NCBI GenBank assembly: GCA_963710755.1
Contig: CAVQBK010000013.1
Span: forward strand, 96,001 to 160,000
Source of the DNA: an uncultured bacterium
GTDB taxonomy: Bacteria > Oederibacteriota > JAAXVQ01 > JAUVAV01
Direction: 5' to 3'
DNA: 64,000 nucleotides
The notes under the pieces are model-generated. The model had not been told where the DNA came from. It was given only the letters and a program-made list of their open reading frames with translations, and ran no database searches. Below, in pieces: positions 8,427-61,099 of this stretch (position 1 is the first letter of the stretch; every line of letters starts with the position of its first letter). The translations under genes were made by a program, and so were the position numbers.

Positions 8427-8453
8427 TAAATTCCGCCCCCATTCTGCCGATAC
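8427..8453 (+). promoter_or_regulatory. Sigma-28 (FliA/SigD)-like promoter
   Basis: TAAA-N15-GCCGATAC, ending 42 nt before ATG 8496. Confidence 0.7.
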
Positions 8454-8495
8454 TGAATCGAGGACGTAACGCAACCTTTACTCTTCGGGGATTCC

Positions 8496-9071
8496 ATGGC
8501 TCATCATAAAGGTACCACTTTAGTCTTAGTCCGCAAAATGCTTCAGGCCCAAGGCCCGGAATTTGAAAAGAAAGTACTGGATCAACTGGACGAAGGAGAA
8601 CGGCAGGATTATTTAAACGCCAAGGTGGTTTTTTGGTACCCGGTCTACGACACGATCGACGACAACAAAGCGCTGCTGGCCGTGGCCGCCCAGGCGCTCT
8701 TTCCTGAAGATCCTGCACCCTTGCGCCGCTTTGGCAAGGTGGCCGCCAATTTCGCCATCAATGGTCTTTACAAAATTTTATTTCGCGTGCCCTCCCTTAC
8801 AGTCCTTATGAGGCATGCCCCCATGCTGTGGCGGACCTACAATGATACGGGTGCCTTTTATGTAGAAGACTTACAGCAGGAACAGCAAGCCTTATCCGTT
8901 CGTTTTGTGGTTAAAAACCATCCCGGCCTGCCTTTGAGCGTACGCGAATTTTTGGCTGGTTATTACGCGGCGGTTTTGGAATGGACCGGTGCCAAAAAGG
9001 TGGAGGTCACCCTTAACCAAACCTACACTGATGAGGGTGGCTGGCGCTGGGATATCCAGGCCGAATATTAA
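8496..9071 (+). CDS. DUF2378/TIGR02265-like (V4R/H-NOX-like) protein, paralog 1
   Basis: KGTTLVL, WYP, LWRTYNDTG, LAGYY..L.WTGAK motifs shared with three downstream paralogs. Family assigned from motif resemblance only. Confidence 0.65.
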   Translation: MAHHKGTTLVLVRKMLQAQGPEFEKKVLDQLDEGERQDYLNAKVVFWYPVYDTIDDNKALLAVAAQALFPEDPAPLRRFGKVAANFAINGLYKILFRVPSLTVLMRHAPMLWRTYNDTGAFYVEDLQQEQQALSVRFVVKNHPGLPLSVREFLAGYYAAVLEWTGAKKVEVTLNQTYTDEGGWRWDIQAEY

Positions 9072-9374
9072 GGTTTGGCCAGTTTGGGATTTATTTTTCC
9101 GGGCCTTGCCTGCCCGCTTTTTTTATCATACCATCATTTTTTTCCTATCTTTCGGGGTCCAACCCCTGTACACTTAAACATCATTAAAGTCACCAAGAGA
9201 GGTGTAGCTGTTGGCCGTTAGATAGCCCAAACCACCCCCGTTTTTCATCCACTCTTTGCGTTAGTCGGTGAAGTCTTTTTTGACCATTATGCTTTTATTC
9301 ATCCCAGCATACCCTTAAAGCCTTTAGATATGGTTTTTATTGGGGTTGGGTAAAATCGCTCCCAGGAGGAGATT

Positions 9375-10859
9375 ATGAACATTTTGTTAGTTTATCCCCA
9401 GCATCCGGAAACATTCTGGAGTTTCAAGTACGCCTTAAAATTTATTAAGCGCCAATCGGCCTTCCCTCCCTTGGGGCTGCTGACCATTGCTGCCATGCTG
9501 CCCAAGGATTGGCAATTGAAACTGGTTGACATGAATGTGGACCAGCTCCAGGAACAGGACTTGCGTTGGGCTGATTATGTGTTTATCAGCGCCATCTCTA
9601 TTCAACGCCAATCCACGTTGGGCGTTATAGAGCAATGTCACAAAGCCGGGGTAAAAATCGTGGCCGGCGGGCCGTTGTTCACCTCCTCCCACACCGAGTT
9701 CACCGGTGTTGATCATTTTATATTAAATGAGGCGGAAATCACCTTGCCCCAGTTTTTGCAGGATTTAGAACAAGGCCAGGCCAAGCCCGTCTATTCTTCA
9801 GATCAGTTGGCTGATCTTAGCCTGACGCCGGCACCCCGTTGGGATTTGATCTCCCACAAAAAATACGGGGCCATGAGCGTGCAGTACTCACGCGGTTGTC
9901 CTTTTAACTGCGATTTTTGTGATATCACTCTGCTCTTTGGCCATAAAACGCGTGTAAAAAGCCAAGCACAGATCATCGCCGAATTGGACCGGCTCTACGC
10001 CTACAACTGGAAAGGGTCGGTTTTCTTTGTTGATGATAATTTCATTGGCAATAAACAGCGGCTCAAAAAGGAAATCCTGCCGGCAGTCATCGCCTGGATG
10101 GAAGATCACAAGTATCCCTTTGATTTTTTAACCCAGGCATCCATTAATCTGGCCGATGATGACGAGTTACTGCAGCTCATGGTCAAAGCCGGATTTGATA
10201 CCGTGTTTATCGGGATTGAGTCGCCCAATGAGGAAAGTCTGACCGAATGTTTGAAAAGCCAAAACACCCGGCGCGATTTGATCGACTCCATTAAAAAATG
10301 TCAGCACGCCGGCCTGCAGGTTCAGGGCGGATTTATCGTAGGCTTTGACAGCGATCCCCTCAGCATTTTTGACCAGCATATCCGTTTTATTCAGCAAAGC
10401 GGCATCACCACCGCCATGGTAGGGGTGCTTAATGCCATGAAGGGCACGCGCTTGTTTCAGCGCCTGGAGCAGGAAAACCGCATGCTGACCGTCTCTACCG
10501 GCGATAATACGGATTGCTCCATCAATTTCATTCCCAAGATGGATGTTCAGGTGCTGCTGCAAGGCTATAAAAAAATCATCAACCAGATTTATGCCCCCGC
10601 CAATTATTATAAACGGGTGAAAACTTTTTTAAAACAGTTCAATATGCCTAAAATCCGTCCTTTCCGGCTGCGCTTCGATCTGCTGCCCGCCCTAATTCGC
10701 TCCATCTTCCGTCTGGGCATCATTGGCAGGGAACGCTTTCATTATTGGAAATTGCTGGTCTGGACCTTGTTTCACCGCCCCCATTCCCTGGCTCTGGCGG
10801 TCAGTCTGGCTATCAATGGCTTCCATTTCCGCAAAGTGTTTAAAGGGGTTACCGCTTAA
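9375..10859 (+). CDS. B12-binding radical SAM protein (DUF4070-type C-terminus)
   Basis: FPPLGLLT cobalamin-binding domain, SRGCPFNCDFC, FFVDDNF, GFIVGFDSD; AGGAG RBS. Confidence 0.9.
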   Translation: MNILLVYPQHPETFWSFKYALKFIKRQSAFPPLGLLTIAAMLPKDWQLKLVDMNVDQLQEQDLRWADYVFISAISIQRQSTLGVIEQCHKAGVKIVAGGPLFTSSHTEFTGVDHFILNEAEITLPQFLQDLEQGQAKPVYSSDQLADLSLTPAPRWDLISHKKYGAMSVQYSRGCPFNCDFCDITLLFGHKTRVKSQAQIIAELDRLYAYNWKGSVFFVDDNFIGNKQRLKKEILPAVIAWMEDHKYPFDFLTQASINLADDDELLQLMVKAGFDTVFIGIESPNEESLTECLKSQNTRRDLIDSIKKCQHAGLQVQGGFIVGFDSDPLSIFDQHIRFIQQSGITTAMVGVLNAMKGTRLFQRLEQENRMLTVSTGDNTDCSINFIPKMDVQVLLQGYKKIINQIYAPANYYKRVKTFLKQFNMPKIRPFRLRFDLLPALIRSIFRLGIIGRERFHYWKLLVWTLFHRPHSLALAVSLAINGFHFRKVFKGVTA

Positions 10860-10874
10860 CCATTTATCTAAATG

Positions 10875-10908
10875 GGGTTATCTCGCAGTTCCGGCTGCGG
10901 GATAACCC
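10875..10908 (+). terminator. Stem-loop downstream of the radical SAM gene
   Basis: gggttatctcgcag...ctgcgggataaccc inverted repeat. Confidence 0.55.
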
Positions 10909-11011
10909 GTCTTGGCCCACATCCTAGGGCCCCTCTCCTCATCAGAGTAGTCGTATGATTAATAGTCGTTTCATTTCTCAAGCCCATCCGTTTTCACGAT
11001 GACCGCTGCAT

Positions 11012-11038
11012 TCAGGAACCGCCGATCCTTTCCGATAA
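11012..11038 (+). promoter_or_regulatory. Sigma-28-like promoter
   Basis: TCAG-N15-TCCGATAA upstream of ATG 11083. Confidence 0.55.
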
Positions 11039-11082
11039 TAATAAAGAAATGTTTTATCCTTGGATATGGAGGGGCAAGCCCT

Positions 11083-11658
11083 ATGTCAAACAGCAAGGGC
11101 GTCACATGGGTCCTGATACGAAAATCACTCCAGGAACGGGGCCCGGACTTTGAGAAACACGTACTCAGCCAAGTTACGGAAAAAGAGCGGAACATCTATT
11201 TCAAGGCCAACGTCCATAATTGGTACCCGGTCACCACTGATCTTCCCGATGAAAAAACGCTCCTCACCATAACCTCCAAAGCACTCTTTCCCAATGACCC
11301 CCAACCTTTGCGCAGCTTCGGAAAAATGGCGGCCGACCATGCCATTAACAACCTCTATAAATTATTATTTCGCATTCCCTCTGTTTATTCCTTGGTCAAA
11401 CGTGCGGCCCTGGCGTGGCGGACCTACAATGATACCGGTGCTTTTTATGTAGAAGCATTTCTCAAGGAGGGTCGCCATATTTCTTTTCAATTCGTCTTGA
11501 AGCAGTACCCCACTTTGCCGGAAAACGTGCGTGAAATGTTGGCCGGTTATTACGGTGCCGTGATGACGTGGACTGGCGCCAAAACCGCGGAGGTGTCCAT
11601 TAACCAAAGCTACACCGAGGTTGTTGGCTGGCGCTGGACTATCATGGCCCACTATTAG
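11083..11658 (+). CDS. DUF2378/V4R-like protein, paralog 2
   Basis: Aligns end to end with 8496..9071; GGAGG RBS before ATG 11083. Confidence 0.65.
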   Translation: MSNSKGVTWVLIRKSLQERGPDFEKHVLSQVTEKERNIYFKANVHNWYPVTTDLPDEKTLLTITSKALFPNDPQPLRSFGKMAADHAINNLYKLLFRIPSVYSLVKRAALAWRTYNDTGAFYVEAFLKEGRHISFQFVLKQYPTLPENVREMLAGYYGAVMTWTGAKTAEVSINQSYTEVVGWRWTIMAHY

Positions 11659-11707
11659 CGCCTGGACAAGGTTGTCTACAGATCGGGACTATTTTGCCGG
11701 CTTCCAT

Positions 11708-11734
11708 TGAAATGCCACCTTCACATGCCGAAAC
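11708..11734 (+). promoter_or_regulatory. Sigma-28-like promoter
   Basis: TGAA-N15-GCCGAAAC. Confidence 0.55.
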
Positions 11735-11764
11735 TCAAACAGACTACAACTCTTTCGTAAAAGG

Positions 11765-12349
11765 ATGGTCAGCATGCCCCATACCAAAGGCACCACCTTG
11801 GTCTTGATACGGCAGTTACTGCAGGAAAAAGGCCCGGACTTTGAAAAGCAAGTACTCAACCAAATCACGGACATAGAACGGGAATACTATTTCAAGGCCA
11901 ATGTTCACGGCTGGTACCCGATGCTCGACAACATCCCCGAAGAAAAAACACTTCTTGTCGCTACCACCTGTGCTCTCTTCCCCGACGATCCGGCACCTCT
12001 GAGAAGTTTTGGAAAGCTGGCAGCCAATTACGCCATCAGTGATCTCTATAAATTATTATTCCGTATTCCCTCTATTCATTTCATTTTAAAGCGTGCGGCC
12101 ATAATGTGGCGGACCTACAATGATACCGGTGCTTTTTATGTGGAAGAATTTGTTAAAGAGGGCAAATCGATTTCCTTTCAATTCGTCTTAAAACATTATC
12201 CCACCTTGCCGTGGAATGCGCGGGAAATGCTGGCCGGGTACTACACGGCTGTGCTGGAATGGACCGGCGCTAAAACCGTGGACATCACCCTGAACCAAAC
12301 GTACACTGAAGAAGAGGGCTGGCGTTGGGTTGTTAAAGCCGGCTATTAA
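11765..12349 (+). CDS. DUF2378/V4R-like protein, paralog 3
   Basis: Same motifs as paralogs 1, 2 and 4. Confidence 0.65.
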   Translation: MVSMPHTKGTTLVLIRQLLQEKGPDFEKQVLNQITDIEREYYFKANVHGWYPMLDNIPEEKTLLVATTCALFPDDPAPLRSFGKLAANYAISDLYKLLFRIPSIHFILKRAAIMWRTYNDTGAFYVEEFVKEGKSISFQFVLKHYPTLPWNAREMLAGYYTAVLEWTGAKTVDITLNQTYTEEEGWRWVVKAGY

Positions 12350-12387: not shown

Positions 12388-12414
12388 TGATAGACCACCG
12401 CTACTTGCCGAAAC
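12388..12414 (+). promoter_or_regulatory. Sigma-28-like promoter
   Basis: TGAT-N15-GCCGAAAC; the most conserved part of this spacer when compared with 11708..11734. Confidence 0.5.
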
Positions 12415-12448
12415 TAACACAAGAAGTTTATAACGCGCCCGCAAAAGG

Positions 12449-13033
12449 ATGGCCAGTATGCCTAATACCAAAGGCACCACCTTGGTCTTGATACGACAGT
12501 TACTGCAGGAAAAAGGCCCGGACATGGAAAAGCAAGTGCTCAGTCAGATCACAGACCTAGAGCGACAAGCTTATTACAAGGCCAATGTGCTTACCTGGTA
12601 CCCTGTGCTCGAGGATGTGCCTGATGAAAAAACCATTATCACCGTTGCTTCCAAAGCCCTCTTTCCCGATGACCCTGAACCTCTGCGTAAATTTGGAAAG
12701 CTAGCGGCCAATTATGCCATTAACAAGCTTTATAAAATACTGTTCCGCATTCCTTCAGTTCATTTTATTATGAAGCGTGCGGCTGTAATGTGGCGCACTT
12801 ACAATGATACCGGTGCTTTTTACGTGGAAGAATTTATTAAAAATAATCATTTTTTATCATGCCAGTTGGTTTTAAGACATTATCCCACCCTCCCCAATAA
12901 TGTGCGGGAAATGCTGGCAGGCTATTACAGCACGGTATTGGAATGGACCGGCGCCAAGACCACGGAAGTCACCCGCAATGATAACTATGATGAATTCAAG
13001 GCCTGGATTTGGTATCTCAAAGCCACTTATTAG
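12449..13033 (+). CDS. DUF2378/V4R-like protein, paralog 4
   Basis: Same motifs; C-terminus diverges (RNDNYDEFKAWIWYLKATY). Confidence 0.65.
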   Translation: MASMPNTKGTTLVLIRQLLQEKGPDMEKQVLSQITDLERQAYYKANVLTWYPVLEDVPDEKTIITVASKALFPDDPEPLRKFGKLAANYAINKLYKILFRIPSVHFIMKRAAVMWRTYNDTGAFYVEEFIKNNHFLSCQLVLRHYPTLPNNVREMLAGYYSTVLEWTGAKTTEVTRNDNYDEFKAWIWYLKATY

Positions 13034-13175
13034 ATCCTAGACAAGCCATCTATTTAAGAACCCGTCCATGTTGCTTTCCCTCGAATTTTACCGCTATTTA
13101 AAAACGTTATCCTTGCAAAAGGCCCTTCATTTTTGCCTTGACGGAGCCTGGCGGGACATGGTAAGTCATACAACT

Positions 13176-13628
13176 ATGGTTGACATATCAATTAATTTAT
13201 CATCACTAAGTGCGCGGGCCTTCGAAAAGTTTTGGCAGATACGGCGGATTGTCAATCTGCTGGCCACCCGGGATCTGAAACCCATAGGCATCGGCTTGAA
13301 GCAAGCCTTGCTGATTTACTATCTCAACCGCGAAGGCAGCACTTCCCAGGCCCAATTGGCCCGCTTTACAGGCAGTGACCCGGCGGCCATTGCCCGGGCA
13401 GTGCATACACTGCTGAACCAAGGCTGGATTGTCCAGAAGGATGATCATCGTGACCGCAGACGGCACACCTTGGTTCTGACCGCCCGAGGTAAGGCACTGG
13501 CCCGGCAAATCTCAGAAATGTTTCAGCGTCTGGAAGAACGGTTTAGCACAGCCCTATCCAAGGAAGAATCGGAAACCCTGACACGGTTACTGGATAAAAT
13601 TTTAGGCGGTTTTAATCAAACGGCCTAA
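13176..13628 (+). CDS. MarR family transcriptional regulator
   Basis: wHTH with DRRR...LTARG; upstream of emrAB-tolC. Start uncertain; palindrome TTGACATATCAA at 13180-13191 may be the operator. Confidence 0.85.
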   Translation: MVDISINLSSLSARAFEKFWQIRRIVNLLATRDLKPIGIGLKQALLIYYLNREGSTSQAQLARFTGSDPAAIARAVHTLLNQGWIVQKDDHRDRRRHTLVLTARGKALARQISEMFQRLEERFSTALSKEESETLTRLLDKILGGFNQTA

Positions 13629-13815
13629 GGCCTAATTAGTTTCGGTTGCGAAAAGAGGTCTTGTCGATCTTAACAAAATAGTCTTCTTCTCTTGGAGGAT
13701 ACCTTTTTCAGCGGGCGCCCACTGGGGATAGGACTATTGTCTTTTCCCTTACCGGGACTAATGATAATTATTTTGTGAACAGTAAAATTAATTTAAAAGA
13801 AAAGGAAAAGTTCCC

Positions 13816-14703
13816 ATGGCACCGAAAAACAAAACAAGCAATTCGGCCGCGGCCGAACCTTCGGCCTCCACTCCTCCTCATACCCCTAAACCCCGGCCCT
13901 GGTGGAAACACCGCCGGGCAAAAATCACCGGACTGATTGTGGCCTTGCTGGCGTTGACAGGATTTGTGATTTGGTTCATTTTTTTCCGTCCCTATCTTTA
14001 CACCAATGACGCCCGCATTGCAGCCACCACTGTGCAGATGGCGCCTCCTGGAGCCGGCGGTATGGTCATTGCCATCTCCGTCACCGAAGGCAGCCGGGTA
14101 AAAGCCGATGACATTCTCGTAGAACTTGACCACCGCGTGGCCCAGGCCAACCTGCAAAGAGCCAAAACCCACCTGGCTTTGGCGGAAAAGGACTATCAAC
14201 GCACCCAGCAACTGGCTGCCGGCAACGGTGTTTCTCCTCGGCAGTTGGATACAGCCCACGCCGCCTATCTCACCGCTCAGGCAGAGGGACAATTGGCCCA
14301 AATCGCGCTGGATAACACCTATTTACGCAGCCCTCTGGACGGCATTGTGATTCAGAAAAGCACGGAAATAGGTGACATGCTTCAGCCCGGGCAGACCGCG
14401 GTGACCGTGGCTGACATGGACCACGCCTGGGTTTCGGCCAATGTCGAAGAAACCAGAGTCGGTCAGCTTAAAATTGACCAGCCGGTCACCATTTCCATTG
14501 ATGCCGGCGGAACCCTTACTGGCAAAGTCCTGGAAATCCGCGCTGCTACAGCCGCCCAATTCGCCCTGATTCCGGCGGAAAATCCATCGGGCAATTTCAC
14601 CAAACTAGTGCAACGCATCCCCATCAAAGTGGCGCTCGATCCCCATCCGGGCCGCCAACTCCGCGCGGGGGAATCGGTGGAGATTAAGGTGCGCATCCGC
14701 TAG
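13816..14703 (+). CDS. emrA: EmrA/HlyD family membrane fusion protein
   Basis: N-terminal TM, YTNDA, FALIPAENPSGNFTKLVQRIPIK. Confidence 0.9.
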   Translation: MAPKNKTSNSAAAEPSASTPPHTPKPRPWWKHRRAKITGLIVALLALTGFVIWFIFFRPYLYTNDARIAATTVQMAPPGAGGMVIAISVTEGSRVKADDILVELDHRVAQANLQRAKTHLALAEKDYQRTQQLAAGNGVSPRQLDTAHAAYLTAQAEGQLAQIALDNTYLRSPLDGIVIQKSTEIGDMLQPGQTAVTVADMDHAWVSANVEETRVGQLKIDQPVTISIDAGGTLTGKVLEIRAATAAQFALIPAENPSGNFTKLVQRIPIKVALDPHPGRQLRAGESVEIKVRIR

Positions 14704-14854
14704 CCGTGGATCAGCTGGCCAGGCCTGACTTTAAATCAAGATCTTTGTTTAAGACCAAATAAAATATCCCCCAATGAATTATTGTGCTTCATCCCCGCTC
14801 GCTTCGCGTAATGCGGGGAATTCGCGAGGGCGTATTAATCGTAGGTTAGGCAAA

Positions 14855-16420: not shown

Positions 16421-16424
16421 ACTT

Positions 16425-30981: not shown

Positions 30982-31008
30982 TCAGCACCATTCTACCCCA
31001 TCCGATAA
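30982..31008 (+). promoter_or_regulatory. Sigma-28-like promoter
   Basis: TCAG-N15-TCCGATAA; both boxes identical to those at 11012..11038. Confidence 0.5.
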
Positions 31009-31054
31009 TAGCATTGGCTGTTGCGCCCAAAGACAACGTCCTTTTCCGAGGCAA

Positions 31055-32035
31055 ATGATGGATACTGAAAACCCTATTCAAGAGAACGTATTTTATTATA
31101 ATATTGACATTTCCGGCACCTGCAATCTGCGCTGTCCTTCCTGCCCACGCGGCAATGAACAACAACATCGACACGGCTTTATGGATATAACCTTGTATGA
31201 ATCCATTCTGAAAAAAATCCGTCTTGAAACCACGGCCAAGACCACACACCTGTTTTTGTTCAATTGGGGCGAGCCCACACTCCATCCTCAGCTTCCCAAA
31301 ATGATCGACATGGCTAACCACTACGGATTGCCGCCTTTTATTTCCACTAATTTAGTCCGACCTCTTAATTTAAAATCTATAATTAATGCGCAACCACGGG
31401 CTATTCGCATCTCCCTTTCCGGCATGACGCCGGAAATCTACAACCAGACCCACGTCAATGGCAATCTCTGGCTTTTAAAATCCAATCTATATCAGCTCAA
31501 GGCCCTGATGGAACAACAACCAGCATCCTTTGATGTAGAACTGTGTTATCTTAAGTACAATCATAACATGGGCGCTGATTATCTTCAGGCCAAGGCTTTG
31601 GCCAAAGAGTTGGGTTTTGGCTTCGTGGAGGCTTGGGCTTTTATAATGCCCCTGGAAAAATTATTAAGCTATTACGAGGGTGAAACTGCGCCCGTACAGG
31701 AGCTGGTAGACCGTTTGGTGATTAAACCGGAAGAATTCAAGGAAATCAGCGGCATGATCAAAGATCAGCATACGGACTGTATGTTCCGTGCCCAGCAAAC
31801 AATTATCGATTTTGACGGCAGTGTGCCCCTATGCTGTGCCGTTTATTCGCCTAAAAATTTTATCCATCCCAATTTTCTGGCCGTTACCCAACATGAATTG
31901 CAGGAACTCAAATACAACCATGATCTCTGCCGGCAGTGCATGGCCCACCACGCTCATATCAGTTATGCCTATGGCGCCTCGGAACAATTGGATGCCCTGG
32001 GCAACAGCCGCTCGGGACTTGCGTCGGCCAGGTAG
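31055..32035 (+). CDS. Radical SAM protein with SPASM/twitch-like C-terminus
   Basis: CNLRCPSC, NWGEP, C...DGSVPLCC...CRQC. Confidence 0.85.
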   Translation: MMDTENPIQENVFYYNIDISGTCNLRCPSCPRGNEQQHRHGFMDITLYESILKKIRLETTAKTTHLFLFNWGEPTLHPQLPKMIDMANHYGLPPFISTNLVRPLNLKSIINAQPRAIRISLSGMTPEIYNQTHVNGNLWLLKSNLYQLKALMEQQPASFDVELCYLKYNHNMGADYLQAKALAKELGFGFVEAWAFIMPLEKLLSYYEGETAPVQELVDRLVIKPEEFKEISGMIKDQHTDCMFRAQQTIIDFDGSVPLCCAVYSPKNFIHPNFLAVTQHELQELKYNHDLCRQCMAHHAHISYAYGASEQLDALGNSRSGLASAR

Positions 32036-46321: not shown

Positions 46322-49300
46322 TCATGCGGCTTGAAACGGGCCGCGCAGACGTCGCCGGGGATGACCCGGTATCGGCGGCCTCGCGGGCAAGATTATGGAT
46401 CTAATTTTTTCCAAAAGCAAGATCAAAGGTGTAAAGAACCTTGTCTTGTTCATGTTCGCCGTGGTCAGGCTGTGGTTGATCCAATTCTTCATCAGCTCGA
46501 TTAACCAAGTTAACCCAAGACTGCTTATCATCACGGCTGCCGCCAAACCAGGTCCTTGCCAGTGGCCATTCATTACCGCCAGAGCCAGATGTCCGGCAGC
46601 CCCCACAGCCAGCAGCAGCGTTAGTCCGCTGAAGGTCACCATACCCTGCATGGAAGACGGTCCTTTGAGGATGGCCTTCACCCACGACGGGATACCTACA
46701 TCCTTCTCACTGGGATTCAGGAAACGAAGAATCCAATCCATATCATCGGGTCCCAACCATTCTGCCTCACAAAGGGGTTTAAAATAATCGTTTTGCAATA
46801 ATTGGCGCAGGTCCTGGTTATGGTTTAAATACTGGGCTTTTCCGGCCCGGCCCATGTCCGCTATCACCACCGGCAGGATGCCGGCCAAGGCTGTCTTTTT
46901 GGTATCATGGGTGCTGCGCCAAACCACTTTGGCCAAATGATCACCCAGGGTTCTGACCAGAGACAGGTCTTGGCCCTGTATTAAATAGGTTTCTTCAAGC
47001 ACCGTTGTACGCAGCCGCTCCATTTCATGGAGCTGGTCCGTCACCACTTCCTCCAGACTTTTAGGGTGCGCCACCACCGAATTTCCGGCAAGCGCTTGAA
47101 AAGAAACCCGGTCCAGCTGCTCTGCAGATAGTAATGTGTGATTCCCTTGCATCACCGTAAAATATTTAAAATATCGGTTAAGCAATGCTTTGATGGCCGG
47201 GAACATGACCCGATCTATCCGCAAGGTTGCATAAGTCTTGTCGGTCATGATTTTGGTGCGGAGGAAATTCATTGCCGTAAAGGTAAACCCCGCGGGCACA
47301 ACGTCTCCCTTTGACAGAGGTTGGAGCACCATCTGACCGAGAGCCTTATCCAAAGTCAATACCATGCGCCCTACAAAGGCCCCGCGGTTTTTATCTGATA
47401 ATCGTTTCCACCTTACCGGTTTGCTCTTCATAAGGTAAAAGTCATAAATAGATCCCCTCATTTTGTTGACGACGAAATGCTGCCATGGGTTAAACACGTT
47501 GGCCAACCCATTCAAATCGGGATCAAAATCCTGCAGCGCATAGTGCTTCTCCAAATAATGGCGAATGGTGCGTTCCAGTGCCTTCCTATCCGCGGACTTG
47601 GCAGCAAACCTTGCCAGCACTAGTGGACGCATGGCTTCCTCTACACCGGGAAGACCGGCAAGTGCTTTAATAGCCTCGCGATTATTCAGGCCCAGTTGCT
47701 GCCATAAAGGGCCTTTTTGCGGATCCAGCAAGCTTTCCAGCGACATTTGCTGGAGTTCTAATTTTTGCTCCCCATTGATCAGGCTGGTCGTAGGGAGAAT
47801 GACGTTGAGCAGGATGTTGGCCAGGGCATGTTCCAGAAAGGGTTTCACGGTCTCGGGCTTTTGAGCGCGCTGTTCCAAGCCCTGCACGATGGCGGTCAGG
47901 ATCTGGTGTTGTTTTTCTTGTTCCACGCCATAGTATTGCAAGGTTAAAATAAATTGCCGTAGCCGCCCTGCTTCGTGAGCCATGACGCCTGGGGGAGAAA
48001 ACCATAGGGCCAGAGCCTGCTTCAAGTCATCGTCCTGCCCCGAAGCCAAGGACCAGATCCATTGATCCAGTGAAGTAAGAACCGGCGGCCCTTCCAAGGA
48101 AGAGGGATGGGCCCGGATTTGTTCCAACAACAGGCCATGGCAGGCACTCAAGATTTGCAAGGATTTTAAAGGTTGTTTCTTCGTCTCAGCCATCACCAGC
48201 CGGTACAGTTGGTCGGACAGCTCCATCAGTCCTTTTCCTTGAGGGGCTGTTAAACCCTGACGTGTGTCGAGGAGCAACGCCAATTTCCAAGCTAAGAGGT
48301 GATAATCCGCCAGCCTACGTACACCTAGCCGTTCCTGGTTTAATTGAGCCAGACGGGCTGCGGCTTCAGGGTCCAAGAGATCGGGTTCCTTGGCCAGAGT
48401 CTCCACCATCAGGCCGACCCAGCGTAAAGGAGTGGGCCTCCCTTCGGCTCTCACCTTTTGAAAAAAGAGATCACCAGGGGCAGCCATTCTCTGTAACATT
48501 TTGAGGTTTTGGTCCAATTCATGATTCTGGTCTTCCGGTGTATACGCCAGCCAGGCGGTTAAAAGTTTATAAAACAACAGGTTGTAGTCATCACCAAACC
48601 AATTTTCCAGCCGGCTGCGCATTTGTATAAAATCATCGAGCGATTCCAAAGGCCTGCGCTGAGCCTGCCGCACCAGATAATGGTTAAAAAAGGGTAAGTC
48701 CTTTGGGTTAATGGACCAGGGGACGGTTCCGCGCTTGAAAGGACGATTGAGCCAGGCTTCAGTCACTTCTGCAAGCAGTTGGGGCTGGTCTGAAAGGGTC
48801 AGGCCAAAATACCGGTGCAGGCTGCCTATGTAAACCTGCTGGCTCGGTGCGGCAGCCACCAGCAGGGATTTGAGGAGAGTCGATTTATCTGCTCGGGGCA
48901 GTTGCAGGTTAAAGTATTGCTGGAACCAGGGCCCAAAAAGACGGGGGCAACGGTCTATCATCCAGTAAGCCAGTCGGCGTTTGATTCGCCAGTCAGCTTG
49001 CTGCAGTTTTTTCTGGAAAGATTGCCAGCGGCGGTCATGCATACTGACATCCTGTAGGTTCAGAGTTTGCACATCCTTTTTCCATCGGGGCACCCAGTCG
49101 GGCTGAGGTTCAGATCCGCTGCTGGTCATCATACCTAATAAGCCCGGTATTAAGGTTGTAAAGTCATGGTCCATCACTGCCTTGATCGTATAGCCCAGCA
49201 CCACGGCAGCAGCTCCGGTCATCAGCAAGCGTCGGGATCCCCAGGCTTTCACAGCCAAGGCCTTCACCCCTTTCTTCGCAGTTTTCCCCAGAGGGCGCCA

Positions 49301-50845: not shown

Positions 50846-51054
50846 AGGTGCATCCCACTATAACATCAGAAAAAAGGTGCATCAATTTTCGATGCCAGGA
50901 AAAATGTATTAAATAATTATATTCAAATAGATTGTTTCATTTTAAGAAAAAAGAAGGTGTACTTTTTTGGAAGATCCTTGAGGATGGGAGCCAGAGCAAA
51001 CCCTTTGGCTTGCCCCTTTGTTTACCCCATGACGGTTATTTCGGTCCACACTTG

Positions 51055-51423: not shown

Positions 51424-51629
51424 CTCCCTGTTCTGGTTCGATTTTTCCCTCTCAGTAATTCAATGGCCAACACTATCCTATTGACCAGACCCTTTTGTCT
51501 TACTATAATTACTACTCTAATGTTTTGAAGTCAAATCATTTTTCTTGCAAGTGAAATAGGCATAATTGGGACAACATCGCCGAGGTTCACCTTGCATGAA
51601 AGTATATACCTTCATGAGGAGTTAAAATC

Positions 51630-52419: not shown

Positions 52420-52461
52420 TTGACAAGCTTTGTTGAACCATGTAGTATTTTCGAGGTCTAA
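52420..52461 (+). promoter_or_regulatory. Sigma-70 promoter with adjacent CosR-like operator
   Basis: TTGACA-N17-TAGTAT followed by TTCGA-GG-TCTAA at 52450-52461. Confidence 0.65.
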
Positions 52462-52493
52462 TTATTGGTATTGAAATGATTGGGAGTTTAACT

Positions 52494-53057: not shown

Positions 53058-53100
53058 CCCTTTTCAGACCACCTACTTCCAAAAACTTCAGAAATGAGTC

Positions 53101-54003
53101 ATGATGAACATTATTGATGGAAAGTTACATTTATCCGAACATCAAAGCGTTGATATCGTTTTGGGCGATTACAATCAAAGAATTAAGCTCTATGGTCTTA
53201 CCGGCACGGACCTCAACCAGGAGCGGCTGGAATGGCTGTGCCGCCAACAAAGCACCCTGGGTCATCCTTACGGCAAAATTATCGTTTATGCCCTGCCCGG
53301 CGGGGAAATGGACTGGCTGGCTATGGGTTTTGTAAAAGAAGGGGTAATTGGGGGTTTTTTTCGTAATCAGACCGACGCGGTTATCAGGTCTTATTTTATC
53401 GACCCCGACCGGCGCAGTGATGAGTTGCAAGCCAAACACGACAAATATGTGCAAATCGCCAGGGATAAAGCTTCTATTACGCCCGCCTGTCCAAAGGGCT
53501 TTACCTGCCATTTGGCCCAGCCCGAAGATGCTCCGGCAATTTCAGCGCTTCTAAAGCGGACTTTCAAGGATTACCCCTCCTCCCTGGAAGCGGATCACCT
53601 GCAAAAAGCAATGGCCAACCGGCACAACCACTTCCGTCTCATCCGCAACCACCGGCAACAGCTGGTGGCGGCCATGTCCGCTGAAATCGACCACGAACGA
53701 AGCAGCGCAGAAATGACGGATTGCGCTACGGACCCTGACTACCGCGGCTTGGGTCTGATGGCCTGCCTGCTTGGCCGTCTTGAGCAAGACTTACATAAAC
53801 AATTTGGCATCATCAATTTCTATACCTTGGCCCGGGCGGACATGCTCAGCATCAATTGCGTGTTCAGCAAACTGGACTACCATTACACGGGACGGCTGGT
53901 CAACAACTGCCGCATGCCCAATGGATGGGAGTCCATGAATATCTGGTGCAAAAGGTTATCACCAAAGGAGAACCATGGATCATCGCAGCCAGCGTCAAAA
54001 TGA
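53101..54003 (+). CDS. ablB: Beta-lysine N-acetyltransferase
   Basis: [52 protein letters not shown]. Confidence 0.88.
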
Positions 54004-55300
54004 AATATCCAGTCAAATCAATGAGCATTCAGCCGCTACCAATGCCTCCCATTGGTATGACTGGCAGTGGCAATTGCGCCATTGCGTCAGAAATATGGAT
54101 CAATTTGAACACTTATTGGGGGTAACCTTTCCTGAAGAAAAGATGCGTCAACTAAAAGAAGCGGCCGCCAAATTTCCCATTTCCGTGACCCCTTACTATC
54201 TGTCTTTAATTGATACCACCGATCTGGAGAACGACCCGATCTTCAAGCAATCTTGTCCTTCTTCCCTGGAATTACAGACCATGCATCATGATTTGGCTGA
54301 TCCGCTTTCAGAGGACAAAGACAGCCCGGTCCCAGGCATCACCCACCGCTATCCGGACCGGGTGTTGTTTTTGGTTTCCAATACGTGCACCATGTATTGC
54401 CGGCATTGCACCCGCAAACGCAAGGTGGGTGAAAAAGACTCCATCCCCTCAAAAACAGCGGTCAAAAAAGGCCTGGAGTATATCCGGTCCACGCCGGCGG
54501 TACGCGATGTGCTACTCTCCGGCGGCGATCCCTTTTTGCTCCCCGATGATTATCTGGATTGGATTTTAACGGAATTACGCAAAATCAAACATGTGGAAAT
54601 TATCCGTATCGGCACCAGGACCCCGGTGGTACTTCCCTATCGCATCACCGACAATCTGGTGAACATGCTTAAACGCCATCACCCTCTGTGGATCAACACC
54701 CATTTTAACCATCCCCGGGAAATCACCAAATCATCGAGCATAGCCCTGGCCAAATTGGCTGATGCCGGCATCCCTCTAGGCAACCAGTCGGTGCTGCTGG
54801 CCGGGGTTAATGACTGCCCCAGAATCATGAAGCGGTTGATGCAAAAGCTGGTCCAGAACCGGGTGCGTCCCTATTACATGTATCAATGTGATCTTTCGGA
54901 AGGGCTGAATCATTTCCGTACGCCTGTGGGCAAAGGCATCGAAATTTTGGAGAGTCTTATTGGTCATACCAGCGGGTTGTGCGTACCGACGTATGTTATT
55001 GACGCACCCGGTGGCGGCGGCAAGATTCCCATCATGCCTCAGTATCTGATTTCCTGGTCCACCAATAAAGTGATCCTGCGTAATTATGAAGGCGTGATCA
55101 CCACTTATCGCGAGCCCGATTCGTACGAGCCCTTTTTCTGCAACCGCAATTGCGACCACTGCCAGTTACAGCTGAAGTTGGACCCCAAAGAGGATCCCGA
55201 AACCGTGGGGATCGAAAAACTGCTGGCCGATTACGATGAAACCATTGCCCTCGTTCCCAGCAACACGAGCCGTCTGAAACGGCGGCGCCGGAAGAGTTGA
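53975..55300 (+). CDS. ablA: Lysine 2,3-aminomutase
   Basis: [38 protein letters not shown]; overlaps ablB. Confidence 0.93.
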
Positions 55301-55972: not shown

Positions 55973-57673
55973 TTAAGATTTCGGCATTTTTTTTAAAAAT
56001 TCGAAATTACAGATGCGAATATCGGGCTGGCCGCAATGGTCGCGAATCACCCTGCGTTCCTTATTAACAGAAATGAGCAAATGCTTGCCGCTCAGGTTTA
56101 GGTCTTCAACGCCCACCCGCTGCAGTTTTTCTTTGGTTAATTGAATGATATTAAAGTACTCTTCCCGCGTAATAATACCTTCACGGTAGGCATACAGGGT
56201 GTTAATGCCTTCGCAAAAATCATCTTCTGCCTCTGCCAGACGTTCATCAGGCCCGTTCCAATAGCCCCAGATAATGATGTAATGGCGGTCCTTCATGAGG
56301 ATGGGCTTACCATCCGGGGTGGTAAGCGGTTTATGGGTTTCATAACGCTGATTGTCAAAAAAACGGTCAATAATGTCACTCTTGTTGGCCATCATATAAA
56401 TGGCCCGGGGATAAATGGTAGCCACACCCTTTTGGTTTAATTCCACGGCCAGTTGAACTTCTTCAAAGGGACTATTGTACCCGTATTCCAGAATTTTGCG
56501 CTCATCATCCAAAAAAGGGTCCATATCGGGGACCAGTCCCACCTTGGACACTTCCCACACCACATGCAGGTTGTCTTTGGTAATAGTGTAATAACTCTCA
56601 CTGAACATGGATATTTTAGTACGTTTGGTGCTTTCCCAGCGTTCGGGCATGAAAAAATCGAACAGAAATGGGTCTTTTCCCACCACCCACAGACGGCCTT
56701 TGGTGCTTTCCACTTGGCCAAAAATATAGTCCACATCAAAAATACGCATGTGGTTCAACCCATCGTTGATAGTGATCGGCACTTCAATGGCAAAACGATT
56801 TTTCTGCCGGCGGTGATAATCCTTACGCTTTACTTTTTTCAAAATCCGCTCTTTTTCTTCCGTACGTGCCAGCAGTTCAAAATCAATCAGGGCGTAGTGT
56901 TCAGTCGGACATGAATGTTGGTCGCGGCCGTTCAGGCGCTGAGGATCGACCACCACATGGTTGGGCTTGTTATCGCGCACCACAAACCCCAGCCGGCTAA
57001 GCTTCTCCGCAGCATCAGCCGCCAAATTCCGGGCCTGCTCCCCGTTGATCAGGCGGTTTTCAAAAGCCAGGGCCGCGTCCATACCATCCACCCATTGATA
57101 AATCATCATATAGAGCCGGTTCATGTCCAGGTCTACATCCACATGTTGGCTGATGAGCATTTTCATTTTGTATTCGCTTCTGCCGGTTTGCCACAATTTA
57201 TGCCGCTGAGCGGGCACATAGATGGCCAAGGGTTTCTGGATGGCAATCAAGTAAGGCGAGTCTATAACTGCGTCCTGCAGCTGTTGCACCAGGGCAAATT
57301 CTTCAAAGGGACTGTTAAAACGGGCATGAAGTAAATCTTCGTAAATTTCAGCTCCGGGAATCTCCTCACCCATGCGGTTCCATTTAATCACCAGGTCATG
57401 GTCGCGGTTGTCGATCGCTTTGGTCCTAACCTTGTAAACACAACTGGTACCGGCCAAACGCTGGGCATGTTCCTTGAACCAGGGACTCTCGGCCTTGAAA
57501 TCCATGGGATTGTGCGCATTCAAAATGGGCAACCCCTCGCGGGTGATGAAAAAATCATCGTCATTTCCCATCCTGATATGGGCATACTCCACATCGAAAA
57601 TAGTTCTCACGCCAAAGGCTTGCTGGCCTTGTTTGCTCTCGTACCAGCTTCTGATCAAATCATCCTTAATCAT
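55973..57673 (-). CDS. Hypothetical protein with two tandem protein-kinase-like domains
   Basis: Internal duplication (FNSPFEEF / YNSPFEEV); the N-terminal half has LVIK, RDNKPNH and IDFE; AAGGAG RBS. Confidence 0.65.
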   Translation of the reverse strand: MIKDDLIRSWYESKQGQQAFGVRTIFDVEYAHIRMGNDDDFFITREGLPILNAHNPMDFKAESPWFKEHAQRLAGTSCVYKVRTKAIDNRDHDLVIKWNRMGEEIPGAEIYEDLLHARFNSPFEEFALVQQLQDAVIDSPYLIAIQKPLAIYVPAQRHKLWQTGRSEYKMKMLISQHVDVDLDMNRLYMMIYQWVDGMDAALAFENRLINGEQARNLAADAAEKLSRLGFVVRDNKPNHVVVDPQRLNGRDQHSCPTEHYALIDFELLARTEEKERILKKVKRKDYHRRQKNRFAIEVPITINDGLNHMRIFDVDYIFGQVESTKGRLWVVGKDPFLFDFFMPERWESTKRTKISMFSESYYTITKDNLHVVWEVSKVGLVPDMDPFLDDERKILEYGYNSPFEEVQLAVELNQKGVATIYPRAIYMMANKSDIIDRFFDNQRYETHKPLTTPDGKPILMKDRHYIIIWGYWNGPDERLAEAEDDFCEGINTLYAYREGIITREEYFNIIQLTKEKLQRVGVEDLNLSGKHLLISVNKERRVIRDHCGQPDIRICNFEFLKKMPKS

Positions 57674-57767: not shown

Positions 57768-58181
57768 TTACAAATCAAAATAAACTTCCCCTTCCCATTT
57801 TCCTTGATTAACAGACACCTTCAACTGGTGGTAAGTGGCGCTTTTAATTTCACGTACCAAAGTCCCCTCGCCCAGAATGGCAAACGAGCCGTCTACTGTG
57901 AGCTCGTGGCCCTGCTCCTCTTGTTCCACCTTAATCCGCCCTGCAATCATATGATGGACTGTGGCCTCATAAATAAGTTCGTTTAAAAAGTGGACCAACA
58001 ACTCCTGCTCATCTTCTCCTATTAAAACTATAGTCTTTCGTTGAACCGGACCGGCCGGCAGCCGGACAGTCATGATGGCGTTCAACCCTGCGGCCGCCTC
58101 CTGATAAAAACTTTCCCGCGAGTATGCCCATACCCTCAAACCCATGTCCGCCGTATGCTCCAACAGCTCAAACCCTTTCAT
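57768..58181 (-). CDS. Archease
   Basis: EHTADMG, EIKSATYH, YFDL C-terminus; overlaps rtcB. Confidence 0.93.
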   Translation of the reverse strand: MKGFELLEHTADMGLRVWAYSRESFYQEAAAGLNAIMTVRLPAGPVQRKTIVLIGEDEQELLVHFLNELIYEATVHHMIAGRIKVEQEEQGHELTVDGSFAILGEGTLVREIKSATYHQLKVSVNQGKWEGEVYFDL

Positions 58182-59644
58182 CCCTTGATCACGCCCATAG
58201 GAACCAGCCGTGCGGCCTTTTTGGACAATCCCAGGCGATGGGCCACCTCCACCACCCGGTCAATTTCTTTGTATGCTCCGGGCGCCTCCTCCACCAAGGT
58301 CTTGCGGTTATGCGCCATTACCTCTATGCCTTTGGCTGCTAAAGCCGGCAGCAGAGTCTGATGCTTAAATTTTTTCAAAGCACCCTGCCGGGAAAGCACC
58401 CTGCCCGCACCGTGCGCAGTGGAACCAAAGGACAACGTCATGGCCTGGGGGGCGCCGACAGCCACATAAGACGCGGTGCCCATGCTGCCAGGAATTAATA
58501 CCGGCTGACCGAGGTGACGGTAATCGGCAGGCACGTCACTATGATCGGCAGGAAAAGAGCGGGTAGCGCCTTTGCGGTGGACACATACCGGCAGGATTTG
58601 GCCTCCTACTTGGTGGTTTTCAATTTTGGCGATATTATGGGCCACATCATAAACCAATCTTAGTCCCAAAGCACCCCAGCTTTTTTGAAACACTTTCTCA
58701 AAGCTCTCCCTGACCCAATGAGTAATACATTGCCGGTTGGCCCAGGCATAATTGGCGGCTGCTGCCATAGCCGCCAGGTAATCTTGGCCTTCCCTGGACT
58801 TGACCGGCGCGCAGGCCAATTGCCGATCCGGCAGCTCGATGCCATAGTAGCGTGCAGACTGAATAAAAAGAGGTAAAAAATCATCGCATACTTGATAGCC
58901 CAATCCCCGGGACCCGCAATGAATCAAAATGCATATCTGACCCTTTTCCAGACCAAGGCCGCGGGCAACCTCTGAATCAAAGAGCTCATCCACCTTTTGG
59001 ATTTCCAAAAAGTGGTTGCCCGAGCCCAAGGTACCCAGTTGCTGTGCTCCCCGTTCTTTGGCGCGTGTGCTGACGAGGTCATCATCAGCATTGGCTATGA
59101 CGCCCTGGCTTTCGGTATGAGCCAGATCTTCATCCGTGCCAAAACCTTGCTCCACCGCCCAAGCGGCGCCCCGGTGCAAGACTTGGTTCATCATGGACGG
59201 CTTCAGGTTTATGCGGCCTTTGCTGCCCACGCCGCTGGGAACGGCTTGGTACAACGCCTTGACCAAGGCTTCCAAACGTGGCCGCAGGTCTTCTTCCCGC
59301 AAATCGGACCGTATTAGGCGTACTCCGCAGTTGATGTCATAGCCCACCCCGCCGGGAGAGACAATGCCGGTCTCTACATCAAATGCCGCCACCCCGCCGA
59401 TGGGAAATCCATAACCCCAATGGATATCGGGCATGGCCAGAGCCCGGCCCACAATGCCCGGTAAGCAGGCCACATGGTGTACTTGTTCCAGGGCCTTATC
59501 CTGCATGGCCGCTTGCACAAGCTGCTCATCAGCAAATACTAGCCCATCAACCTTCATATTTGGGTGATCCTGCCTGCTGATAAGCCATTGAAAAGGGGCA
59601 ATTTCTTTCAAGGCGCCGATGGAATGGAGGTCTGGTTTAGCCAT
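58178..59644 (-). CDS. rtcB: RNA-splicing ligase RtcB
   Basis: MPDIHWGYGFPIG, GYDINCG, GSGNHF, HCGSRG, HRKGAT, PGSMG, HGAGR. Confidence 0.95.
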   Translation of the reverse strand: MAKPDLHSIGALKEIAPFQWLISRQDHPNMKVDGLVFADEQLVQAAMQDKALEQVHHVACLPGIVGRALAMPDIHWGYGFPIGGVAAFDVETGIVSPGGVGYDINCGVRLIRSDLREEDLRPRLEALVKALYQAVPSGVGSKGRINLKPSMMNQVLHRGAAWAVEQGFGTDEDLAHTESQGVIANADDDLVSTRAKERGAQQLGTLGSGNHFLEIQKVDELFDSEVARGLGLEKGQICILIHCGSRGLGYQVCDDFLPLFIQSARYYGIELPDRQLACAPVKSREGQDYLAAMAAAANYAWANRQCITHWVRESFEKVFQKSWGALGLRLVYDVAHNIAKIENHQVGGQILPVCVHRKGATRSFPADHSDVPADYRHLGQPVLIPGSMGTASYVAVGAPQAMTLSFGSTAHGAGRVLSRQGALKKFKHQTLLPALAAKGIEVMAHNRKTLVEEAPGAYKEIDRVVEVAHRLGLSKKAARLVPMGVIKG

Positions 59645-59827
59645 GGGTAACCTCTTTTGGCTTTAAATAATCCGCCTCGGTCAGGATTAGAACTACCGCA
59701 TTTTGATAGAAATCATCACACCTTTTAAAGAGGCTGTCAATGGAAGGAAGAGGATTTTCATATGAATTTTAATTGAAATTAATATAAATATGTTTTATTA
59801 AGAAAAACAGTGAAAAAAAATTATATC

Positions 59828-59876
59828 ATCACAATAAAATACCCCGCAATTTAATTGCGGGGTATTTTATTGTGAT
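59828..59876 (-). terminator. Perfect 23-bp inverted repeat, probable terminator
   Basis: atcacaataaaataccccgcaat-tta-attgcggggtattttattgtgat just downstream of the lipoprotein gene. Confidence 0.8.
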
Positions 59877-59898
59877 TTAACCAACCAGGTTTATTGGA

Positions 59899-60357
59899 CT
59901 AATTCCAATTAACGTTTGGTATTTGATAAATGTATGGTGTCTCAGGTTGTGTATCTTTGGTATAAGTTGGCGATGACCCAATTTCAACATCATTTTCATA
60001 AATCGTAATCTTGGCATTACCACCATCCAACACAGCAAATCCGCCACCCACTCCAGGACATTGATTATGTCCGATAGTAATTGTTGTTTCCCAAGGTAAA
60101 GCAACCATACCAACTTGCACTTCGTTGCCCCAAGAGTCACCATAACCAACAAAGCATTGTTGAGAAGTGCCAGTGACAGCAATTTTAATTTGCGAAGTGG
60201 GCACGGCAAAGGTAGGCGTTGCGGTAGCAGTCGGCATTGTGGTCGGTGTAGCGGTAGGATCGGCCGGTTTGGGATCAGTTGGTGATTCGGAACAGCTCGC
60301 AATCATCATTCCCAGACAAGCAGCGGCCACCATGGTAATAAACAAGTTTCTTTTCAT
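59899..60357 (-). CDS. Lipoprotein with Pro/Thr-rich linker
   Basis: Lipobox IASC, PTATPTTMPTATATPT linker, small beta-rich domain with two Cys. Confidence 0.75.
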   Translation of the reverse strand: MKRNLFITMVAAACLGMMIASCSESPTDPKPADPTATPTTMPTATATPTFAVPTSQIKIAVTGTSQQCFVGYGDSWGNEVQVGMVALPWETTITIGHNQCPGVGGGFAVLDGGNAKITIYENDVEIGSSPTYTKDTQPETPYIYQIPNVNWN

Positions 60358-60405
60358 TGCTTTCCCCTTTCAATTCGATGATTTTTTCTTTCTTAATCAA
60401 CTTTA

Positions 60406-60433
60406 TTATCGTGATCATCACGACTCGACTTTA
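60406..60433 (-). promoter_or_regulatory. Sigma-28-like promoter
   Basis: TAAA-N16-CACGATAA on the minus strand, with an A11 tract upstream. Confidence 0.45.
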
Positions 60434-60465
60434 GGACTATAATTTTTTTTTTTACCGTCGTCTAA

Positions 60466-61044
60466 TTACTGCCAATGATAATTGATGACACATGAGGCAT
60501 GGCCATCGGCCACGCATTTAGGATGATCCCAGACCAGGTTTTGTGCGCCCGCAAATTCCAGAACCGCGCTAGTCCATCCGATAGTGCCCAAACAACCCGC
60601 CCGTCCGTAGACGTCGGCCCCCACCAATTCAAGGGACAACATCGTCGCGCTTTTATAGATGATATTGACCAGCCCGGCATTGAAATAATGCCTCCAGGCT
60701 GAGGGCAATTGACCGGCCACAAAGGCGGGAGAACCGATTTTTAAAAATAATTTCATAAACGTGGAAAAATCTTTTTGGGCGACAAATCGGGCGCCTTGGA
60801 TAAAGGCGTCCTCCTTTCCCTCGCCCCAGAGACGGTTGCAGACCTCATAAAGATGCAGATAGAGTTCCGCCGGATACCAGGCCACTTGCGGCATTTTTCC
60901 AACAGACCAAAGCTCTTTTTCCGAAGGTGATAATTCTCCTAAGAAATCTTTCAATCCCGTTCGGCCATATTGGCTGATAATCCATTCCCTGGTGCCGCTG
61001 AATATTAATCCTTTGACTGATCCTCTGCCCTTATCCGTTGTCAT
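60466..61044 (-). CDS. DUF2378/V4R-like protein, distant fifth paralog
   Basis: VKG, WYP, WRHYFNAG, L.FAGA and V4R-type C..DG...C; AAGGAG RBS before ATG 61044. Confidence 0.65.
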   Translation of the reverse strand: MTTDKGRGSVKGLIFSGTREWIISQYGRTGLKDFLGELSPSEKELWSVGKMPQVAWYPAELYLHLYEVCNRLWGEGKEDAFIQGARFVAQKDFSTFMKLFLKIGSPAFVAGQLPSAWRHYFNAGLVNIIYKSATMLSLELVGADVYGRAGCLGTIGWTSAVLEFAGAQNLVWDHPKCVADGHASCVINYHWQ

Positions 61045-61072
61045 GATTGCTCCTTCAAATGACTTAGGGTTA

Positions 61073-61099
61073 GTATCGTATTGGATAGGCAGGAAATTA
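61073..61099 (-). promoter_or_regulatory. Sigma-28-like promoter
   Basis: TAAT-N15-TACGATAC on the minus strand. Confidence 0.4.

Follow-up and report, generated by a model that had tools for sequence, protein, structure and literature searches.

A candidate sigma-28-type promoter motif before five H-NOX-fold paralogs and a radical-SAM gene in an uncultured bacterium

The DNA analysed here, hereafter the window, is a stretch of 64,000 nt with about 50% G+C, and belongs to contig CAVQBK010000013.1 (at least 531 kb) from an uncultured bacterium. It carries five paralogous genes for small proteins, a radical-SAM gene and a lipoprotein gene, and before each of these stands a similar pair of short sequence boxes (Table 1). 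An earlier note on this DNA had placed all five paralogs behind such a two-box site, with a spacing of 15 nt and its end 28-44 nt before the start codon, and reading of the DNA confirms the coordinates, the boxes and the spacings. From the end of the -10 8-mer the distance to the start codon is 42, 44, 30, 34 and 28 nt for paralogs 1 to 5, and the radical-SAM and lipoprotein genes have distances of 46 and 48 nt; the starts of paralogs 2 (11083) and 5 (61044) were moved to these positions because of the alignment of the N-termini. The boxes before the radical-SAM gene (30982) are, as had been claimed, identical to those at 11012. The lipoprotein site is likewise present at 60406 with a spacing of 16 nt, and in the frame of the Bdellovibrio consensus used below its spacing equals that of the other sites, but a sigma-70-like alternative, TAGACG-N17-TATAGT, adjoins it just upstream and makes this promoter site less certain. 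Domains were sought in 53 proteins of the window, the promoter scan covered the upstream regions of 56 genes, and the related DNA used for comparison was one locus, L001, on the contig of a metagenome-assembled genome, found in a scan of genome contigs.

Table 1. Two-box sites, the genes that follow them and an associated hairpin in the window; fractions give matches to TTAAG-N16-CCGATA
Feature	Coordinates	Strand	Description
Paralog 1 site	8427..8454	+	TAAA-N15-GCCGATAC then T; 9/11; -10 block kept in L001, flanks diverged
Paralog 1 gene	8496..9071	+	191 aa; H-NOX-like fold, distant DUF2378 relative
Terminator-like hairpin with T run (intrinsic type), 3' of paralog 1	9100..9125	+	
Paralog 2 site	11012..11039	+	TCAG-N15-TCCGATAA then T; 10/11
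Paralog 2 gene	11083..11658	+	191 aa; start corrected from 10999
Paralog 3 site	11708..11735	+	TGAA-N15-GCCGAAAC then T; 8/11
Paralog 3 gene	11765..12349	+	194 aa; alternative start 11775
Paralog 4 site	12388..12415	+	TGAT-N15-GCCGAAAC then T; 8/11
Paralog 4 gene	12449..13033	+	194 aa
Radical-SAM gene site	30982..31009	+	TCAG-N15-TCCGATAA then T; 10/11; boxes as at 11012
Radical-SAM gene	31055..32035	+	326 aa; weak SPASM-like C-terminus
Possible eighth site	46370..46396	-	ATAAT-N16-CCGATAC; 60 nt 5' of MarC-family gene
Lipoprotein gene	59899..60357	-	152 aa; lipobox (IASC), Pro/Thr-rich linker
Lipoprotein gene site	60405..60433	-	TAAAG-N16-ACGATAAT (equivalent to TAAA-N16-CACGATAA of the earlier note); 9/11
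Paralog 5 gene	60466..61044	-	192 aa; start corrected to 61044
Paralog 5 site	61072..61099	-	TAAT-N15-TACGATAC then T; 9/11; leave-one-out rank 6 of 127,936

Identity to paralog 1 is 55-59% for the first four paralogs and 20% for paralog 5. A hidden Markov model built from 66 family sequences, with paralog 5 left out, nevertheless detects paralog 5 at an E value of 7.2e-28, and by this profile it is a clear member of the family. The model recovers exactly five members among the 477 open reading frames (ORFs) of the window and L001, so that the claim of the earlier note to have seen all of them holds. Its label for the family, DUF2378/V4R-like, describes a distant relation at most. None of the five paralogs has a Pfam match at E<=10, and TIGR02265 is matched by paralog 1 only, at an E value of 0.045 and with 13.6 bits against a cut-off of 25. 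A profile search reached 1,360 representative clusters (50% identity) at E<=0.001, and among 67 aligned relatives 17 match DUF2378 (PF09536) weakly at E<=0.01 and one matches HNOB; the paralogs thus belong to a related but separate family. The DUF2378/TIGR02265 paralogous family of Myxococcus comprises distant relatives of the window proteins, which fall under every Pfam threshold and under the TIGR02265 cut-off. In the Atlas, the closest clusters come mainly from Myxococcota; in one of them 17% of the members carry DUF2378. The V4R part of the label fails, as no V4R match was found by Pfam in the paralogs (E<=10) or among the families matched by the 67 relatives. A word-based protein search gave four matches, which were paralogs of the window itself and the ortholog in L001.

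The AlphaFold2 model of paralog 1 is a confident one, with a predicted local distance difference test score (pLDDT) of 94.4. When the whole length of this model was searched with Foldseek, the top matches in the PDB were H-NOX domains (E 2.3e-5, TM scores 0.55-0.61), with the BcsD and Bet3/TRAPP folds lower in the search, and the fold can be taken as that of H-NOX. In H-NOX domains a conserved proximal histidine ligates the haem. The window paralogs have the fold in common with these domains but not this conserved histidine: no column of the 67-sequence alignment holds at least 30% His or Cys, which leaves no conserved haem ligand in that set, and most relatives have Arg or Gln in place of His107 of paralog 1. 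This makes a canonical haem sensor unlikely; a small hydrophobic-ligand binder or carrier would be the most likely function.

When eight sequences were aligned on CGA and compared position by position, A-32, C-13, G-12, A-11, A-9 and T-7 proved invariant (8/8); T-34, C-24 and C-23 are kept in seven of the eight, and T-35, C-27, T-16, C-14, T-10, A-6 and A-5 in six. Since the base 3' of every 8-mer is T, the core of the -10 box can be written CGAWAMT. In the published account of promoter recognition by sigma-28, the consensus comprises (-36)TCTAAAG(-30) and (-15)GCCGATAA(-8); the A at -11 is flipped out, and there are contacts to G-12 and C-13 (PMC12784957). The hallmark of this -10 element, CGA at -13 to -11, is present in all eight sequences, and the -10 8-mers match GCCGATAA at seven of eight positions for paralogs 1 and 2 and the radical-SAM gene, at six for paralogs 3 and 4 and the lipoprotein gene, and at five for paralog 5. 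In the Bdellovibrio frame the -35 5-mers match TTAAG at three or four of the five positions. The predicted +1 base, judged by eye, is a purine at six sites, those of paralogs 1 to 5 and of the radical-SAM gene.

Because circularity was to be avoided, the sites were scored against an independent consensus of 11 scored bases, TTAAG-N16-CCGATA, derived from mapped FliA-type promoters of Bdellovibrio. Only two of the 127,948 positions in the window reach 10/11, and these are the sites of paralog 2 and of the radical-SAM gene. A further 15 score 9/11, among them the sites of paralog 1, paralog 5 and the lipoprotein gene. Five of the 17 positions with at least 9/11 are thus sites of the present set; of the other 12, one is intergenic, 214 nt from an ORF, and 11 lie within ORFs, including the one 5' of the MarC-family gene. 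The control with shuffled DNA that the earlier note had proposed comes out in favour of the motif, within the window: with the end of the motif required to fall 20-60 nt before a start, six of 56 genes have a site of at least 9/11, compared with 0.35 +/- 0.61 (maximum 4) in 1000 dinucleotide shuffles. Eight genes have at least 8/11 in this position, namely the seven of Table 1 and the MarC-family gene, and the other 48 reach at most 7. With a position weight matrix from which each site was withheld in turn, the held-out sites rank 6, 6, 6, 9, 21 and 97 of 127,936. The pattern TNA-N18-CGAWAMT, which was defined post hoc, has nine matches, six of them sites of the set and three background, against 1.63 +/- 1.35 in shuffles. 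The core CGAWAMT is itself of ordinary frequency, with 27 copies on both strands where about 31 are expected; ten of the 27 fall within the 6,559 intergenic bases, and in eight of these cases a start codon on the same strand follows after 27-47 nt. One caveat on the chance control is that in a crude count of TAAA-N15-GCCGATAA paralog 1 alone stands out (11/12), with paralogs 4 and 5 and the lipoprotein gene (8/12) within background.

Several further occurrences were considered, some of which were set aside. The match at 50885-50912 on the minus strand, 5' of a 1507-aa ORF, falls on the loop and stem of a hairpin that resembles a terminator (50895-50879), with sigma-70-like promoters nearby and the likely start codon further off. 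Two copies of GCCGATAAT, at 33264 and 33273 (minus strand), belong to a 9-nt tandem repeat inside an ORF and are put down to chance, and the matches at 52447 (minus) and 57574 (plus) have no gene in position and count as background. The possible eighth site (46370) falls inside the 1507-aa ORF, at its 3' end, and does not have the T at -7; it is weak and doubtful, and may have arisen by chance. At 13638-13645 on the minus strand an intergenic CCGAAACT is followed by AA and has a TCGACA box upstream, without the T-34/A-32 pattern; it points antisense into the 3' end of a MarR-family gene.

Between L001 and the window the ferredoxin-oxidoreductase region is 77-81% identical and the paralog-1 gene 72%, whereas the L001 stretch with the B12-binding radical-SAM gene and paralogs 2 and 3 is 97% identical and is therefore uninformative about conservation of the motif. 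Upstream of the L001 ortholog of paralog 1, the one place where the conservation check proposed by the earlier note could bear, the sequence has diverged; what is kept is AGCnTAA and, covering the -10 box, 12 nt without a mismatch, TCTGCCGATACT. This L001 site is CTAAG-N16-CCGATAC (10/11), and in all of L001 just two positions score at least 9/11, those before the orthologs of paralogs 1 and 2. Within the window, paralogs 3 and 4 keep 23 of 30 bases of the promoter block by manual count, and their 5' leaders have diverged. Relative to the window L001 is a mosaic (L001 10831-13527, window 9375-12077), at 72-81% over the ferredoxin-oxidoreductase genes and paralog 1 and at 97% over the radical-SAM gene and paralogs 2 and 3, which could reflect recent exchange or a chimeric co-assembly. 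L001 is without the DEAD-box helicase gene found at 6579-8219 of the window.

Which sigma factor would read these sites? The motif most likely marks a promoter class shared by the five paralogs and the radical-SAM gene, and the lipoprotein gene probably belongs to it. The housekeeping grammar of the window is itself ordinary, as shown by canonical sigma-70 promoters at 51481-51509 (TTGACC-N17-TATAAT, 11/12) and 52420-52448 (TTGACA-N17-TAGTAT, 10/12), both with T at -12, so that the motif stands apart as a separate class, in agreement with the earlier note. We consider it somewhat better than an even chance that an alternative sigma factor of the sigma-28 (FliA/SigD/WhiG) family reads all of them as promoters of one class, and this appears the most likely assignment on the sequence evidence. 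What the sequence shows is the motif itself, where and in which direction it lies, its excess over chance, its retention in one ortholog and its likeness to known promoters of sigma-28 type; which sigma factor reads it, where transcription begins and whether the genes are co-regulated we infer from these sites. By eye, sigma-54 and extracytoplasmic function (ECF) readings do not fit: the coding strand has no GG-N10-GC, as a sigma-54 promoter would have, and there is no conserved AAC/CGT pair, as for ECF factors.

The closest parallel is with the attack-phase regulon of Bdellovibrio bacteriovorus. In the promoter survey of Karunker et al. 2013 (PMC3627812), TTAAG-N16-CCGATA is found in 92 of 140 mapped attack-phase promoters, and such promoters drive many non-flagellar, mostly hypothetical genes. 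The mapped FliA-type variants in Table S3 of that study include TTCAG-N16-ACGAAACT (Bd1483), TTCAG-N17-CCGATACT (Bd0470) and TAAAG-N16-CCGAAACT (Bd0027), with positions counted by eye, and by our own count of positions their mapped starts are consistent with an A at -11 or -10 (PMC3627812). The window sites thus resemble Bdellovibrio FliA promoters in geometry and in the very variants of their boxes (TTCAG at -35; CCGATACT, CCGAAACT and ACGAAACT at -10). They differ in that Bdellovibrio has mapped starts and a fliA gene, bd3318, whereas the sites described here are known from sequence alone, in that the Bdellovibrio spacers, judged by eye, are not C-rich, and in that the window has genes of a kind usual in anaerobes. 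In the class 3 flagellar promoters that sigma-28 reads in E. coli and Pseudomonas aeruginosa, TAAA and GCCGATAA are likewise 15 nt apart, in the examples given in the recognition study (PMC12784957); the window sites depart from those promoters in having non-flagellar targets, a degenerate -35 box, an invariant T-7 and additional conserved C's at -27, -24 and -23. Non-flagellar members of the family are also known. Streptomyces WhiG provides a precedent for the control of development, as outlined in PMC12871210, and Chlamydia sigma-28, in the portion of its literature considered here, is likewise a non-flagellar precedent. Compared with both of these systems the target genes in the window are different, and no sigma or anti-sigma gene was seen in it.

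A number of observations weigh against a sigma-28 assignment. The invariant T-7 (8/8) is unlike sigma-28 promoters: Bdellovibrio has mostly G at this position (rows read CCGATAAG, by eye), and the structural account of sigma-28 recognition, in the section concerned, describes T-7 as not conserved in sigma-28 promoters and as a sigma-70 feature (PMC12784957). The sites can also be read as sigma-70 type, with TTGAAA, TTGATA or TTCAGG separated by N17 from GATAAT, GATACT or GAAACT. The -35 box is weak, with the exact TAAA in just two of the seven sites and conservation confined to T-34 and A-32, and the lipoprotein site does not have T-34. The conserved spacer CC at -24/-23 (7/8) and C-27 (6/8), for example at 8434 and 8437-8438 of the window, lie outside the sigma-28 consensus, and we know of no sigma-28 consensus that includes C-27, C-24 and C-23. 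Scores are modest at some sites, since 123 positions of the window reach 8/11 and paralogs 3 and 4, which are recent duplicates, both score just 8/11; the eight genes with at least 8/11 in promoter position fall within the range of the shuffles (2.91 +/- 1.62, maximum 9). The conservation evidence, as read from these alignments, is good but thin, comprising a single informative ortholog and one pair of paralogs. Finally, no sigma-factor domain was found among the 53 proteins scanned from the window. As to the non-flagellar character proposed by the earlier note, no flagellar gene was found for those 53 proteins either, which come from 64 kb of a contig at least 531 kb long.

The best-placed alternative is that the promoters are read by another sigma factor, either of group 1/2 (housekeeping or RpoS-like) or another of group 3 (sigma-32-like or sigma-F-like), which we regard as possible though doubtful. 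T-7 and A-11 are both invariant, and the former is in the cited account a mark of sigma-70, not of sigma-28 (PMC12784957). The -35 hexamers TTGAAA, TTGATA and TTCAGG at N17 fit sigma-70 geometry, and the -10 cores GATACT and GATAAT agree with TATAAT at four to five of six positions. RpoS prefers C-13 and a -10 element resembling CTATACT, and RpoS-like factors need T-7. Set against this is the G-12 found in 8/8, where the canonical promoters of the window have T; none of the sites comes up in a sigma-70 scan with a threshold of 9 matches in 12, for all that A-11 and T-7 are present; and the two best matches in the window to a sigma-28-type consensus are sites of this very set.

Alternatively, the conserved blocks could for the most part be an operator that overlaps an ordinary promoter and binds a transcription factor, for which the MarR-family protein encoded next to the paralogs is one candidate. 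The additional conserved spacer positions C-27, C-24 and C-23 would suit an operator, as would the presence of a MarR-family gene 34 nt after paralog 4. The motif, however, has no dyad symmetry; it consists of two blocks at a fixed spacing of 15 nt and a fixed distance from the start codons, its best-conserved bases, A-11 included, are exactly those of a -10 element, and it matches experimentally mapped FliA-type promoters, all of which makes an operator unlikely. That the motif is the product of chance and of the shared descent of tandemly duplicated upstream regions, with no function, is very improbable: paralogs 2-4 are indeed tandem duplicates, paralogs 3 and 4 do have those 23 of 30 promoter bases in common and several sites have consensus scores at background level, but the same motif stands before unrelated genes (paralog 5, 20% identical to paralog 1, and the radical-SAM and lipoprotein genes), the shuffle and leave-one-out controls contradict such an origin, the footprint in L001 is limited to the boxes, and the leaders of paralogs 3 and 4 have diverged where their boxes have not.

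Should a sigma-28-family factor indeed act here, its region 4 would read TTnAG/TAAA at -35 to -31, while its regions 2 and 3 would recognise (G/T)CCGAWAM from -15 to -8, with A-11 flipped out. Transcription would be expected to start about 7 nt after the invariant T-7, giving predicted 5' leaders of roughly 20-40 nt, and the genes would be switched on together once the sigma factor is free. The terminator-like hairpin that follows paralog 1 makes this gene look monocistronic, which suggests a single-gene unit as far as the DNA can indicate.

The genes that lie among the paralogs deserve mention in their own right. Between paralogs 1 and 2, at 9375-10859 (plus strand), is a gene for a B12-binding radical-SAM protein with DUF4070, which has no copy of the motif; the same gene order around it is found in L001 (10663-12315). 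Its product has weak BchE-, HpnJ- and PhpK-like matches; it and the H-NOX-fold proteins might conceivably work as enzyme and carrier. The MarR-family gene at 13068-13628 (plus strand) begins 34 nt past paralog 4, and the terminator scan listed none between them; it is followed, within 13068-17759, by efflux genes of the HlyD, MFS and outer-membrane-factor types.

Elsewhere in the window there are genes typical of anaerobes, for a ferredoxin oxidoreductase, desulfoferrodoxin and several radical-SAM enzymes. The segment 32859-34943 has a lower G+C content (about 46%) and small ORFs with no Pfam match, one of which, at 33202-33771, contains a 9-nt tandem repeat encoding repeats rich in Asn, Ala and Asp. 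At 37948-45652 (minus strand) is a cluster of V/A-type ATPase genes, among them one for a DUF2764 subunit. The 1507-aa ORF at 46322-50845 (minus strand) belongs to no Pfam or NCBIfam family, and its start is probably downstream of the listed TTG, because a signal-peptide-like segment follows an internal Met. At 52476-55300 (plus strand) are MarR-family, GNAT acetyltransferase and lysine-2,3-aminomutase genes in series, the latter two of which we take to resemble a pair for synthesis of the osmolyte N-epsilon-acetyl-beta-lysine. A 566-aa protein encoded at 55973-57673 (minus strand) has no Pfam match; in the Atlas, clusters of Kdo/WaaP lipopolysaccharide kinases are among its neighbours (scores of 0.93), to be taken as a lead only. 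An RtcB ligase gene and then an archease gene lie at 57768-59644 (minus strand). Searches of the window with Rfam found no family, a tRNA search found none, and a search of a plasmid collection gave no match.

Control of non-flagellar genes by sigma-28-type factors is already known, and what is new here is the link to an H-NOX-fold family and the local grammar of the sites (T-7, and CC at -24/-23). In the literature found on DUF2378 there is no report of a link between sigma-28 and the family, and TIGR02265 and PF09536 led to no literature at all; to judge from titles and the opening lines of abstracts, work on DUF2378 concerns the responses of myxobacteria to the quorum signals of their prey. 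The fullest picture would be of a sigma-28-family factor uncoupled from flagella in an uncultured anaerobe, driving haem-less, ligand-binding paralogs of the H-NOX fold together with radical-SAM enzymes as a programme of sensing, dispersal or development, with a lineage-specific grammar of obligatory T-7 and CC at -24/-23; taken as a whole we think this rather unlikely. The promoter assignment, if true, would add a further case of sigma-28-type control beyond flagella, like those of Bdellovibrio, Chlamydia and Streptomyces, with no new principle. If the sigma factor were confirmed, it would provide a regulatory handle on an uncharacterised family of about 1,360 clusters, the function of which would be indicated by its co-regulated partners, radical-SAM enzymes and a lipoprotein, and by the condition that frees the sigma factor.

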